Made by a program: the position numbers and the translations under genes
Notes under the pieces: model-generated
Database searches by the model: none
Seen by the model: the letters and a program-made list of their open reading frames with translations, nothing else
Told to the model about the DNA's origin: nothing
NCBI RefSeq assembly: GCF_988243305.1
Contig: NZ_OZ547136.1
Strand: one strand, 5' to 3'
DNA length: 64,000 nucleotides
Part shown: positions 703-46,470 of the stretch, one piece after another
How positions within the stretch are numbered: position 1 is the first letter of the stretch
Layout: each line of letters starts with the position of its first letter

Positions 703-2226
703 TTAAATGCTGGCGAACGCCATTGCCACTTCTGTAAAGCGCGATGTATACGTGTTTCTGGTCTCCGTCCTCAGATAGGGATTACCTTCGGGTAGCCGCC
801 AGCGGAACAGCTTCTTGCCTTGCCCCACCAACCGGTACAGTATTTCGCCGCTGAGCTTGCCGTGATTGGTTTTACCAAATAAAACCCACGTTTTGCTCTG
901 ACCCGGTTTCGGTGATTTACACCACCACCTCATCAGGGAAGCGATACCTGTACGGTATTTGCGGGCCAGCCAGTGAGCCAGCTTCCAGAACACGACACGG
1001 TCGATATAACTGAAGACTTTGGCCTTAAAATCAACGAACTGATAGAACATGGCCCAGCCTTTCAGTTTTCGGTTGAGTTGTTCAGCCATATCGACTTTGC
1101 TTTCACTGTAGTTGCCTGATAACAGTGCTGTCAGCGATGCGGCGAAGTTTCTGGCTTTCTCCTGCGGGATCGTTGAGACCACTCGCATCTCGCCATAACG
1201 ACTGCGTTTGCGAATGATCCTGTGCCCCAGAAAGATAAAGCCGTCATTAACATGGGTGATTTTAGTCTTATCCATGTTCAGCCTGAGTTTCAGACTGCCT
1301 TCGAGCACACCCCGACACTCCTCCCTGATGGCTTCCGCCTGTGCTTTGGTGCCTTTGACGATGAGGACAAAATCATCGGCATAGCGGCAGTACGCCACCG
1401 CGGGTTTCCACTGCCAGTTTTCTCTGACCGCCGTACTTCGGCCCCGTTGGATACTGTTATTCCAGTACCACCGATCTTTTCTGGCTTTCCCGCTCAGGTA
1501 GCGCTCATGCAGGTATTGATCGAACTCATTCAGCATGATGTTCGATAATAGCGGCGATATAGCACCGCCCTGTGGCACACCTTCACTGGCCGCCCGAAAG
1601 AGACCGACATCGATATGTCCCGTCTTGATGGTTTTCCACAGCAGAGTCATGAAACGTGCGTCACTGATCCTGCGGCGTACAGCCTTCATCAGCAGTCGAT
1701 GATGTACGGTGTCGAAGTAACTGGACAGGTCGCCTTCAATCACCCAGCGTCCCCGGGTTTCACCACAGTCTGTGAGCTGTAATTTCACCGTGCGGATCGC
1801 GTGGTGGACACTGCGCTCAGGCCGGAAGCCATATGAGAGCGTATGAAAATCACTCTCCCATATCGGCTCCATCGCCATCAGCATGGCCCGCTGAACAATA
1901 CGATCCCGCAACGCGGGGATACCCAGTGGTCGCAGTTTGCCGTTGCTTTTAGGGATGTAAACCCGTCTGGCGGGCAAGGGCTGGTAGTGGCCTGAGAGTA
2001 ATTCATCCCTGAGGATTTGCAGCTCAACAGCCAGTCTGGCCTGTAGCATTGTTTTGTTCACGCCATCAACGCCGGGGGTATGGGCCCCCTTTGATGAAAG
2101 CGTGATCCGCGCCGCTTCAGCCAGCCATTCTGGTTGTGTTATCAGACGCAGCAGCCGTTGAATCCGTAGGGACGGATCGGTGGCTGCCCATGTGGCAAGC
2201 TTGCGTTGCATTTCGCTGATTATCAA
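703..2226 (-). CDS. Group II intron-encoded protein (reverse transcriptase/maturase)
   Basis: 507-aa ORF with RT motifs (PGVDGV near N-terminus, YADDFV active-site box) and a C-terminal maturase (X) region. No obvious HNH endonuclease motif. Start codon uncertain. Confidence 0.85.
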   Translation of the reverse strand: MIISEMQRKLATWAATDPSLRIQRLLRLITQPEWLAEAARITLSSKGAHTPGVDGVNKTMLQARLAVELQILRDELLSGHYQPLPARRVYIPKSNGKLRPLGIPALRDRIVQRAMLMAMEPIWESDFHTLSYGFRPERSVHHAIRTVKLQLTDCGETRGRWVIEGDLSSYFDTVHHRLLMKAVRRRISDARFMTLLWKTIKTGHIDVGLFRAASEGVPQGGAISPLLSNIMLNEFDQYLHERYLSGKARKDRWYWNNSIQRGRSTAVRENWQWKPAVAYCRYADDFVLIVKGTKAQAEAIREECRGVLEGSLKLRLNMDKTKITHVNDGFIFLGHRIIRKRSRYGEMRVVSTIPQEKARNFAASLTALLSGNYSESKVDMAEQLNRKLKGWAMFYQFVDFKAKVFSYIDRVVFWKLAHWLARKYRTGIASLMRWWCKSPKPGQSKTWVLFGKTNHGKLSGEILYRLVGQGKKLFRWRLPEGNPYLRTETRNTYTSRFTEVAMAFASI

Positions 2227-2882
2227 AGGTCTTCACCTCGTTAGGTCAGTTAATTCACGTCGCAAACACATTCAAACTGCTTCCCTTCGCCATGTAATGG
2301 GCTTTCCCCATCGCGGACTACTACGGAAGCTCCGCCAGCCAGCGCGTCATCGGAGCCATGCCCCCTTAACATCCGTCGCTGACCTTCCCCGGTTTACCTG
2401 CCTGGACTCAGGCATACTGAGGAGGCTGCCCGTCGCACTCTTTATCCTTGCTTGCCGCAAGTTGGCAGAAGTCAGCAACGCAAGTGTGATAGACGCTGCT
2501 GCCCCGGTGTTTCGCATACATGTCAAAACACCTTCGACCGGCAGTGCTTACGTATCACTGCCAGTTCCTCCTGCACGGCCTGTCAGATCACGTAGGCCGT
2601 GGTGACGTTTTCAACCCACAGAGGCGGATTAACGGGTTCATGTTCTTCAGCCTTTCAGTACTTAACCTTGAGGATCATCTCGGCTTAGTGATCTCGCCTC
2701 AATCCCCGTTGTCAGCGGGTTACATCACCCTGCGGGCATGCCGCAGGTCACTGCCGCTCAGGCTCTCCACCGTCACACCCGGTGGGATTGTTGGGTTTCT
2801 CATCGTGAGTTACCGGTTCAATATTCCAGACAGACTCGCGGTTCATTTAAGCATCCATGCCCGCCCTGAACTCCGGGCACAC

Positions 2883-3300
2883 CGTAAGTAAAATCAGCCA
2901 CCCACAGCTGGTCAGGACGTTCTGCCACGCACTGACGGTTTACGCGGTCACCTGTGGCAACGGTTTTCCGGCTGACGGTAGTGCGGACCTTTTTACCCCG
3001 GAGAACACCGGCAAGTCCCATAACCGCCATGAGGCGCGCCACTGTACATCTGGCCACCCTGATTCCTTCCCGTAACAACTGACGCCAGACTTTACGCACA
3101 CCGTACACCTGATGATTTTCATCGTATACGCGCTGTATCTCTCTCTTCAGCCAGTCATCGTGCTGCGCACGGGCACTGCGTTTATCCGGATGATGTCGCT
3201 GTTGCTGACAATGGTAATACGTTGACGGGGCAATATGCAGTTCGCTGCATACCGGTCCGACCCCGTACTGCTCACGCAGCTTATCCAGCAGTGGCATCAT
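2883..3300 (-). CDS. IS3-family transposase OrfB, N-terminal (5' exon) part
   Basis: ORF 2818..3300 reads ...[11 protein letters not shown] then runs into intron sequence. Overlaps orfA 3' end as expected for the -1 frameshift OrfAB arrangement. Confidence 0.75.
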
Positions 3301-38398: not shown

Positions 38399-43950
<5,552 letters not shown>

Positions 43951-43952
43951 CA

Positions 43953-44294
43953 ATGCGAATATTTGTCTACGGCAGTTTACGCCACAAACAAGGCAACAGT
44001 CACTGGATGACCAATGCCCAGTTACTGGGCGATTTCAGTATCGATAACTACCAGTTGTATAGCCTGGGCCACTATCCAGGCGCAGTTCCGGGGAACGGAA
44101 CAGTACACGGTGAAGTTTATCGTATTGACAACGCCACGCTGGCCGAACTTGATGCCTTGCGCACCAGGGGCGGTGAATACGCGCGCCAGTTGATTCAGAC
44201 GCCGTACGGGAGTGCATGGATGTACGTTTATCAACGACCCGTCGATGGATTAAAGCTAATTGAAAGCGGCGACTGGTTAGACAGGGATAAGTAA
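43953..44294 (+). CDS. ytfP: Gamma-glutamylcyclotransferase-family protein
   Basis: 113-aa MRIFVYGSLRHKQGNSHWMTNAQLLGDF... Confidence 0.85.
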   Translation: MRIFVYGSLRHKQGNSHWMTNAQLLGDFSIDNYQLYSLGHYPGAVPGNGTVHGEVYRIDNATLAELDALRTRGGEYARQLIQTPYGSAWMYVYQRPVDGLKLIESGDWLDRDK

Positions 44295-44302
44295 TAATAA
44301 AA

Positions 44303-44330
44303 GCACGCCACCTTCGGGTGGCGTTGTTTT
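44303..44330 (+). terminator. Rho-independent terminator after ytfP
   Basis: ACGCCACC-TTCG-GGTGGCGT hairpin followed by TGTTTT. Confidence 0.7.
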
Positions 44331-44607
44331 ATGCGATGTATCTCGCGATTTTTTTTTGTAACTTTTCCATCTTTTGCTTTTCTCTCCGAGCCGCTTTCCA
44401 TATCTGCAATCGCATAAAAAACTCTGCTGGCGTTCACAAATGTGCAGGGGTAAAACGGGGGCACGCTTTGAACGGTGAGTATGAGTGAGGTCGGCTAACT
44501 TCCAGCAAGTGGCTATGAACAGCAAAATGGTGGTCGGGTTTGCTTGTTCTTACCGTTCAAGCCTTGCAACCGCTGAGAATAATGATGGTGGAATAGAGAG
44601 TTTATTT

Positions 44608-44648
44608 ATCGCGGGCATAAAAAAACCCTTACTAACCGAAGCCCGGCG
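44608..44648 (-). terminator. Rho-independent terminator after ppa
   Basis: Minus strand AACCCT...AGGGTT hairpin followed by TTTTTTT. Confidence 0.55.
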
Positions 44649-44673
44649 TTCAGGGTTATTGCGCTAGAAGAAC

Positions 44674-45204
44674 TTATTTATTCTTTGCGCGCTCGAAGGA
44701 AGCAACGATTTCAGCTTTAGCGGCTTCTGCGTTTTCCCAACCTTCAACTTTCACCCACTTGCCTTTTTCGAGGTCTTTGTAGTGCTCGAAGAAGTGAGCG
44801 ATCTGCGCTTTCAGCAGCTCTGGCAGATCGTTAACGTCTTTAATGTGATCGTATTCTTTGCTCAGCTTGGTGTGCGGAACAGCAATCAGTTTCGCATCTT
44901 CACCGGCTTCGTCGGTCATTTTCAGAACGCCAACCGGACGGCAACGGATCACAGAACCCGGCTGCAGCGGGTACGGAGTCGGGACCAGTACGTCAACCGG
45001 GTCACCGTCCAGAGACAGGGTGTGGTTGATGTAACCGTAGTTGCACGGATAGAACATCGCGGTGGACATGAAGCGGTCAACGAACAGTGCGCCGCTCTCT
45101 TTGTCGATTTCGTATTTGATCGGATCTGCGTTAGCCGGGATCTCAATAACAACGTAGATGTCTTCCGGCAGATCTTTACCCGCAGGGACGTTGAGTAAGC
45201 TCAT
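44674..45204 (-). CDS. ppa: Inorganic pyrophosphatase
   Basis: 176-aa [46 protein letters not shown]... Confidence 0.95.
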
Positions 45205-45513
45205 GTCTGTTTCCTTTAAAAATATGTGGCAAACAAGTGCCGAGTATTATAGCCAACTCGCGCCGAATGTCTTCGCTTGTTTTCGTCTTCATTTTCCTTT
45301 TTCGCCAATTTTAAGACGGTATACAGAGCAGGAAAATCCATAACCGTAGCCGCATTTTTCATAGTGAGATGAAAGCGATTACAAACTTGTGATTAACGTT
45401 TTATTTACTTCTTTGAAGTGTGATGTAACGCAATCCGTTACATAACGAATTGTCTATAGTTTTTTCGCGAACATCTTTTCACCAATAATAATTACCCCGA
45501 CGAGGACAACCCT

Positions 45514-46470
45514 ATGTGGAAACGCTTACTTGTAGTCTCTGCAGTCTCGGCAGCCATGTCGTCTATGGCGTTGGCCGCTCCATTAACCGTAGGATTTTCG
45601 CAGGTCGGATCGGAATCTGGCTGGCGCGCCGCAGAAACCAATGTGGCGAAAAGTGAGGCCGAAAAACGCGGAATTACGCTGAAAATTGCCGATGGTCAGC
45701 AAAAGCAGGAAAACCAGATTAAAGCGGTACGTTCCTTCGTCGCGCAAGGGGTGGATGCGATCTTTATCGCTCCGGTGGTTGCGACTGGTTGGGAACCGGT
45801 ATTAAAAGAGGCGAAAGATGCCGAAATCCCGGTCTTCTTGCTCGATCGTTCTATTGATGTGAAAGACAAATCTCTCTATATGACCACCGTCACTGCCGAC
45901 AACATTCTCGAAGGCAAGTTGATTGGTGACTGGCTGGTAAAAGAAGTGAATGGCAAACCATGCAACGTGGTGGAGCTGCAGGGCACTGTTGGGGCCAGCG
46001 TCGCCATTGACCGTAAGAAAGGCTTTGCCGAAGCCATTAAGAATGCGCCAAATATCAAAATTATCCGCTCGCAGTCAGGTGACTTCACCCGCAGTAAAGG
46101 CAAAGAAGTCATGGAGAGCTTTATCAAAGCGGAAAACAACGGCAAAAACATCTGCATGGTTTACGCCCATAACGACGACATGGTGATTGGTGCAATTCAG
46201 GCAATTAAAGAAGCGGGCCTGAAACCAGGCAAAGATATTCTGACAGGTTCTATCGACGGCGTACCGGATATCTACAAAGCGATGATTGATGGCGAAGCGA
46301 ACGCCAGTGTTGAACTGACGCCGAATATGGCAGGTCCCGCCTTCGACGCGCTGGAGAAATACAAAAAAGACGGCACCATGCCTGAAAAGCTGACGCTGAC
46401 CAAATCCACCCTTTATCTGCCTGATACCGCAAAAGAAGAGTTAGAGAAGAAGAAAAATATGGGGTATTGA
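45514..46470 (+). CDS. ytfQ: ABC transporter periplasmic sugar-binding protein (galactofuranose)
   Basis: 318-aa MWKRLLVVSAVSAAMSSMALAAPLTVGFSQVGSESGWRAAET... Confidence 0.9.
   Translation: MWKRLLVVSAVSAAMSSMALAAPLTVGFSQVGSESGWRAAETNVAKSEAEKRGITLKIADGQQKQENQIKAVRSFVAQGVDAIFIAPVVATGWEPVLKEAKDAEIPVFLLDRSIDVKDKSLYMTTVTADNILEGKLIGDWLVKEVNGKPCNVVELQGTVGASVAIDRKKGFAEAIKNAPNIKIIRSQSGDFTRSKGKEVMESFIKAENNGKNICMVYAHNDDMVIGAIQAIKEAGLKPGKDILTGSIDGVPDIYKAMIDGEANASVELTPNMAGPAFDALEKYKKDGTMPEKLTLTKSTLYLPDTAKEELEKKKNMGY

Follow-up and report, generated by a model that had tools for sequence, protein, structure and literature searches.

The stretch of DNA analysed here, called the window in what follows, comprises 64,000 nucleotides, and the locus of interest within it is the spacer between two genes that converge on each other. 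The gene tamB (40171–43950, plus strand) is followed by ytfP (43953–44294, plus strand), which codes for a gamma-glutamylcyclotransferase family protein and forms the left flank of the spacer. The right flank is ppa (44674–45204, minus strand), the gene for inorganic diphosphatase, beyond which lies ytfQ (45514–46470, plus strand). Both flanking genes were identified from the list of open reading frames and from the RefSeq annotation of E. coli AMSCJX02, a genome that is 100% identical to the window over 1.8 kb around the spacer and in which the same genes are annotated while the spacer itself carries no feature. The initial annotation had put the gap between ytfP and ppa at about 380 bp, and this figure is accurate, with ytfP ending at 44294, ppa ending at 44674 and exactly 379 bp (44295–44673) in between.

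Terminators had also been proposed at both ends of this spacer. On the ytfP side, a terminator scan calls an intrinsic terminator with an 8-bp G+C-rich stem and a 4-nt loop at 44305–44324, which runs into a T-tract extending to 44334; K-12-type genomes have this hairpin too, and a second small hairpin followed by nine T residues lies at 44332–44347. The ppa side is less clear-cut. The centroid fold places a hairpin at approximately 44624–44657, which on reading the minus strand runs into U7, and its helix is conserved in an alifold of six alleles, making it a likely ppa terminator, although it is not called by the consensus terminator scan and its folding energy is no better than that of shuffled sequences. 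A sigma-70 consensus scan detected no site in the spacer of the window. Applied to the K-12 locus, the same scan returned one minus-strand site inside chpB, where about one is expected from shuffles, and at this level of background the promoter of chpS could not be placed. Finally, an Rfam scan of positions 43900–45600 at E <= 1 gave no match in the spacer and a single chance-level match to an S15 leader inside ppa.

In E. coli K-12 MG1655, the corresponding interval measures 886 bp and consists of 211 bp downstream of ytfP, the genes chpS and chpB on the plus strand and a further 79 bp before ppa, an order that is also given in a published table (PMC5120126). The statement in the initial annotation that chpSB occupies this position in K-12 is hence correct, and the situation that it had named as contradicting it, an annotation of chpSB at another K-12 locus, was looked for and does not obtain. 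ChpB is a MazF-like, ribosome-independent endoribonuclease that is reportedly less processive than MazF (PMC12151602). The K-12 protein matches the Pfam family PemK_toxin at 1.1e-25.

No intact ChpS- or ChpB-like open reading frame was detected by tblastn or blastn in the spacer or elsewhere in the 64-kb window. To this extent the earlier statement that no reading frame between ytfP and ppa resembles ChpS or ChpB holds; however, it overlooked that positions 44467–44591 align to chpB at 72% identity. The very check that had been suggested, a tblastn search for ChpB, spoke against a clean absence, since its best match in the window is a fragment in the spacer that corresponds to amino acids 15–42 of the toxin at 50% identity (E 0.002). 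Homology to chpS was not found in the spacer by either blastn or tblastn. Likewise, tblastn searches with ChpB and ChpS from the K-12-type locus (L001) and with MazF, MazE and PemK revealed no other ChpB-, MazF- or PemK-like locus in the window; the sequences used for the last three queries may contain errors, and the conclusion is based solely on the searches with ChpB and ChpS. Each of the features that characterise a module of this family is missing. Instead of an open reading frame for a PemK/MazF-fold toxin of approximately 110–116 amino acids, only codons 7–48 are left, interrupted by stops and frameshifts. There is no antitoxin gene directly upstream of the toxin and overlapping it, the chpS region being part of a deletion of approximately 312 bp. 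The palindrome with 21-nt arms that stands directly in front of chpS in K-12 (L001 1657–1701), and which we infer to be a putative operator, falls in the same deleted segment.

A resemblance of the allele-specific middle part of the spacer to chpB first became apparent when both alleles were aligned globally. In a local alignment, 44467–44591 (plus strand) matches chpB nucleotides 19–145, i.e., codons 7–48, with 72% identity over 127 aligned columns (blastn E 1.5e-12). The alignment score of 108 compares with 22.7 +/- 3.3 (maximum 43) for 2000 dinucleotide shuffles, which corresponds to a z of 25.7. Translated in the frame of chpB, the fragment reads GARFER-stop-V-stop, with two stops straight behind the conserved F-E-R, and two 1-nt deletions follow downstream. 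The fragment thus has the attributes of a pseudogene: it occupies the orthologous site between ytfP and ppa, lies on the plus strand as in K-12, has lost its reading frame and has an intact orthologue within the same species. Other alleles of this relic carry additional indels. An open reading frame of 60 amino acids at 44485–44667 was considered as a gene and rejected, as it runs through the relic in a frame other than that of chpB and is broken by indels in other relic alleles. RefSeq leaves the relic without annotation in nearly all genomes, and labels it as a hypothetical protein in one of 25 genomes listed.

The remainder of the spacer is shared with the K-12-type locus and allows both edges of the relic to be defined. 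The segment upstream of chpS is retained at 44305–44457 (plus strand), homologous to L001 1501–1652, and the homology extends as far as GGGGTAAAACG (44457). At this 5' junction, the nine nucleotides GGGGCACGC (44458–44466, plus strand) stand in place of approximately 312 bp of the K-12 sequence, comprising the palindrome, all of chpS and chpB nucleotides 1–18; alignments with K-12 gave no assignable match for these nine nucleotides. At the 3' junction, GATGGTGG is followed by AATAG (44584–44596, plus strand), such that chpB nucleotides 139–145 (CTGGTGG) are joined to the counterpart of GGTGGTGG-AATAA at the end of the gene. These two motifs are 201 bp apart in K-12, and the loss amounts to approximately two thirds of the toxin. 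The sequence TGGTGG forms a 6-nt microhomology at this junction, and it is found among the direct repeats of K-12 chpB (families D6 and D12). From 44600 to 44673, pairwise alignment recovers the chpB–ppa spacer common to K-12, where it measures 79 bp. The difference in length of 507 bp between the two alleles is accounted for by the two deletions together with small indels. Due to the stops, frameshifts and deletions that affect the relic and chpS, the locus can yield neither the antitoxin nor the toxin, and the strain, as judged from its sequence, is devoid of a functional chpS–chpB pair at the ytfP–ppa locus.

The polymorphism that had been suspected at this site is real and far from rare. 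In a set of 5,426 complete E. coli genomes, intact chpSB, defined as at least 80% of the K-12 cassette, is found in 3,098, and the relic allele, defined by the relic-specific 141 bp, in 2,321 (approximately 43%); at least 80% of the 379-bp spacer is covered in 2,320 genomes, in agreement with the latter count. Only about seven genomes belong to neither class. The relic is accordingly an ordinary allele of the species. The relics fall mainly into two groups of haplotypes: 1,527 relics show at least 99% identity to the window, and a second group of 687 shows 90–95% identity and includes E2348/69. Intact chpSB is found in K-12, HS, ST131, O157:H7 and ST648, and the relic in the BL21(DE3) derivative BAP1, in S88, in E2348/69 and in an O91:H21 strain. 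Both alleles would then occur within phylogroup A (K-12 and HS versus BAP1) and within phylogroup B2 (ST131 versus S88 and E2348/69), to which we take these strains to belong. Since a single phylogroup can presumably hold both states, the allele is not a clean lineage marker, and the usefulness for strain typing that the initial annotation had attributed to it is limited, even though the underlying polymorphism exists.

Two kinds of record in E. coli deserve separate mention. In 187 of the 5,426 genomes, the gene esiB, which codes for a secretory IgA-binding SLR protein, is located between ytfP and the unit formed by the terminator and the relic, and esiB accompanies the relic in both examples inspected, GN02323 (L089 9103–11137) and A37 (L090 4334–6368). 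The genome HH45 (L008 670–900) was considered as an intermediate allele and discarded. Its relic is of the window type except for a stretch of chpB with 100% identity to K-12, beside approximately 130 bp of GC-rich, homopolymer-rich, low-complexity junk, and PGAP calls a partial PemK/MazF pseudogene in this segment. The genome derives from a "pre-treated sample", and the segment most likely arose when a mixed sample was assembled or polished.

Outside E. coli, the spacer between ytfP and ppa was surveyed across Enterobacteriaceae with YtfP as the query and one genome per species, and proved to be a variable site between convergent terminators. Empty spacers of approximately 100–170 bp without chpB homology occur, for example, in Citrobacter, Klebsiella, Kluyvera and several Enterobacter, whereas a Lelliottia, Enterobacter asburiae, two Pseudocitrobacter, Kluyvera genomosp. 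1 and one isolate have homologues of chpSB with 63–78% amino acid identity in this position. Short fragments are present in two further species: a ChpB-like one of 14 amino acids with 71% identity in Citrobacter sedlakii (L031 3430–3471) and a ChpS-like one of 23 amino acids with 65% identity in Enterobacter cloacae (L037 5100–5168), which may be independent relics of chpSB. Unrelated cargo also occupies the site in other genera (L021 3734–5227; L020 3603–4945; L045 3382–5007; L058 5247–5971). Salmonella arizonae and Citrobacter youngae harbour Hcp-domain proteins with C-terminal extensions, of the Hcp–toxin fusion type, followed by a small partner open reading frame; in C. youngae the extension is DUF6883 and the partner is DUF4926. 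A methyl-accepting chemotaxis protein lies between ytfP and ppa in Silvania and Enterobacter soli, and a RelE-like/HTH pair in a Pluralibacter MAG. In E. coli N50 (L091 1–6000), an island with a beta-glucoside PTS, a glycoside hydrolase and licT, together with a phage integrase, adjoins ppa and replaces ytfP and the spacer, representing another occupant of the same hotspot.

The same two junctions are present in all relic alleles aligned, which come from E. coli (the window type, the esiB-linked form and two alleles of B2 type), from the E. albertii type strain and from SCPM-O-B-8794, a GTDB species representative. These alleles differ from each other by indels and by 4–16% substitutions, with 12–16% between E. 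coli and E. albertii, and the divergence between relic and intact alleles is 27–29%. Every Escherichia chpB is 72–76% identical to the relic, and chpB of other genera approximately 60%. In a neighbour-joining tree based on 107 homologous columns, the relics form a clade with 100% bootstrap support and the intact Escherichia genes another with 99%, both being united at 100% to the exclusion of every other genus. The two clades are separate, and several species are represented in each of them. The excess divergence falls mostly on the stem branch of the relics, which is approximately 2–3 times as long as the depth of their crown. For comparison, tamB of the window differs by 5–9% from that of other Escherichia species and by 0.8% from that of K-12. 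These relations suggest that the decay is older than the split of E. coli and E. albertii, a crude estimate drawn from 107–125 sites and very imprecise as a date because only 125 bp of homology are left.

The distribution of mismatches along the locus may bear the same signature. Between the window and K-12, there is approximately 1 mismatch per 100 bp in tamB and ytfP, 7–15 per 100 bp in the spacer beside the indel, and 1–6 per 100 bp in ppa and ytfQ. The most divergent stretch is the ytfP–chpS spacer at 44305–44457, which is approximately 83% identical between both alleles; for comparison, tamB retains 91–95% identity between Escherichia species, and the flanking genes of the window and K-12 differ by approximately 1%. 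Such a peak of divergence at the indel is what an old polymorphism should leave behind once recombination has eroded the linked divergence. In strain 2000-3039, intact chpSB follows a window-type upstream spacer that is 100% identical over 163 bp (L006 3001–3163). This is a recombinant haplotype with its breakpoint at or near the indel, and it demonstrates recombination within the locus. The O111:H2 strain 12A likewise combines intact chpSB with a relic-type upstream spacer that matches the window at 100%. Taken together, the comparisons point to one old decay event and to a polymorphism that would have persisted across species, either through the vertical persistence of both alleles or through homologous recombination between species, both of which would fit the data.

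Although its coding capacity is lost, the relic retains one conspicuous property of the gene from which it derives. The 5' part of Escherichia chpB (nucleotides approximately 19–115; L001 1965–2062) can fold into a long imperfect hairpin of -46 kcal/mol (z -3.5), and the E. coli relics form an equivalent hairpin in the same register with -41 to -44 kcal/mol (z -2.8 to -3.8); in the window, it spans 44465–44562 (plus strand), with -44 kcal/mol and a z of -3.8. The outer stem is missing from chpB of other genera. Across ten sequences, which effectively represent two lineages, 92.5% of the cells of the K-12 structure are paired. Four pairs are changed on both sides, e.g., from G-U to U-A at columns 19/97, a number not above that of shuffles and derived from two lineages only. 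When the same number and type of substitutions were placed randomly on the K-12 sequence (n = 1000), a fold as good as that of the E. coli relics was reached in only 0.7–1.4% of the simulations, and one as good as that of the E. albertii relic in 36%. In intact Escherichia chpSB, variable sites are scarcer in the hairpin region (5/97) than elsewhere (80/499; p 0.004), and an extra constraint on the hairpin at third codon positions of intact chpB was not significant (p 0.14). These figures weakly suggest that the hairpin has been retained in the E. coli relics beyond what random mutation predicts, in a test selected once the hairpin had already been noticed.

The 379-bp spacer is very probably a decayed allele of the chpS–chpB (chpBIK) type II toxin–antitoxin locus, and the observations above allow other origins to be weighed against this one. 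That the spacer was never occupied and chpSB inserted later in the lineage of K-12 might be suggested by short spacers without the cassette, which are common in Enterobacteriaceae, the cassette being therefore patchy across the family. The flanking genes of these truly empty spacers are as in the window, but the spacers differ from that of the window in both length and content: 379 bp exceeds their approximately 100–170 bp, and the chpB fragment, which is highly significant, correctly oriented and placed, and accompanied by the stop region of chpB, has no counterpart in them. A fragment of chpB bounded by two defined deletion junctions indicates the decay of a gene and not a site that was never occupied, and insertion in K-12 is barely tenable as an explanation. 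A recent, strain-specific deletion or an assembly error in the source genome would produce a short spacer as well, and the record of HH45 illustrates that assembly artefacts do arise at this locus. However, the same allele is present in 2,321 independent complete genomes, some of which match the spacer of the window at 100% and one of which matches the whole locus at 100%, and the relic, which occurs also in E. albertii, has diverged by 28% from chpB. This origin can be regarded as practically negligible.

The possibility that concerns the present state of the relic rather than its origin is co-option, according to which the region upstream of chpS, relieved of the palindrome and the repressor, would drive a functional structured non-coding RNA of approximately 200 nt, composed of the relic hairpin and the common terminator hairpin and acting, e.g., as an sRNA or by interference with convergent ppa transcription. 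Such a role would explain the persistence of the relic, and it would be in line with the strength of the hairpin, its conservation in E. coli despite 27 substitutions, the 3–4 pairs in which intact and relic clades differ at both positions while pairing is kept, and the low variability of this region in intact chpSB, where it is the least variable part. On the other hand, neither a promoter-like site nor an Rfam match is found in the spacer, the hairpin is mostly lost in the E. albertii relic (z -0.7, simulation p 0.36), and the indels and substitutions that separate the relic alleles are what unconstrained DNA would show. Moreover, since only two lineages are compared, the double changes amount to one or two events, and neither their number nor the third-codon-position comparison stands out statistically. 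Co-option in this form is very improbable, and the relic is probably non-functional DNA, even if the retention of the hairpin in E. coli relics fits less well with purely neutral junk. A related view, which we consider rather unlikely, is that the intact and decayed alleles have constituted a balanced polymorphism throughout the diversification of Escherichia, with the relic perhaps kept, in view of a hairpin preserved beyond neutral expectation, as a structured RNA or DNA element. If this were true, the cost of the toxin would be set against a benefit under some condition, for example stress, phage or plasmid addiction.

The comparisons show that an Escherichia-type chpSB cassette formerly occupied the ytfP–ppa site. 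A deletion of 201 bp between the short TGGTGG repeats eliminated the C-terminal two thirds of ChpB, and another of approximately 312 bp the palindrome, all of chpS and the start of chpB. The remaining 125 bp of chpB then gained approximately 28% substitutions, two frameshifts and the stops. Because loss of ChpS in the presence of active ChpB should be harmful, the toxin was presumably inactivated, by the internal deletion or by another mutation, before or together with the antitoxin, after which chpS would have been dispensable. A single decay may have taken place before the divergence of the species, or else the decayed allele may have spread among them by homologous recombination, and intact and decayed alleles would have coexisted ever since. 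The finding that no gain in fitness could be attributed to chpB under stress or in post-stress recovery (PMC2654758) fits an easy loss of chpSB.

Surveys of gene content have already treated chpBS as an accessory gene, associated with isolates from healthcare-associated bacteraemia (PMC6096937) and with phylogroup B1 and commensal bovine strains (PMC5422975). The strains in which pan-genome or PCR surveys score chpBS as negative are, however, not clean nulls, as they carry a fixed and recognisable relic that annotation pipelines leave unlabelled and by which the null allele could be identified positively. The alleles are split near 43:57. Given the presumed occurrence of both within single phylogroups, associations of chpBS with clinical origin, e.g., with bacteraemia (PMC6096937), need to be corrected for lineage and recombination. 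Moreover, the locus offers a clean example of a chromosomal toxin–antitoxin module lost by decay with both states coexisting across species, which bears on the debate over the fitness benefit of chpB, mazEF and relBE (PMC2654758). For the specialist, there is no surprise in any practical point. No description of the chpB relic, of its junctions or of its presence in E. albertii was found in a literature search that left most subscription journals outside its reach.

Compared with its intact counterpart, the chpS–chpB (chpBIK) pair of K-12, a member of the MazEF/PemIK family, the relic has the same position and orientation and shares both flanking spacers, but it lacks chpS, the palindrome, the start of chpB and approximately two thirds of the toxin, and it is 28% diverged, with stops and frameshifts. 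Decayed chromosomal toxin–antitoxin loci are an established kind, of which the chpB relic is a minor new case. Mine et al. (2009; reference 44 in PMC2654758) reportedly described the decay of chromosomal ccdO157 within the species E. coli. In a later source, this decay is taken as a sign of dispensability and erosion (PMC2654758). The ccdO157 system resembles chpSB in being a chromosomal type II locus between core genes, which part of the strains possess in intact form while the rest have a decayed copy or none. The two differ in that chpSB belongs to the mazEF/pem family instead of the ccd family and lies at a different locus, and they may also differ in that a single decayed form with fixed junctions, common to other Escherichia species, makes up essentially all of its non-intact alleles.
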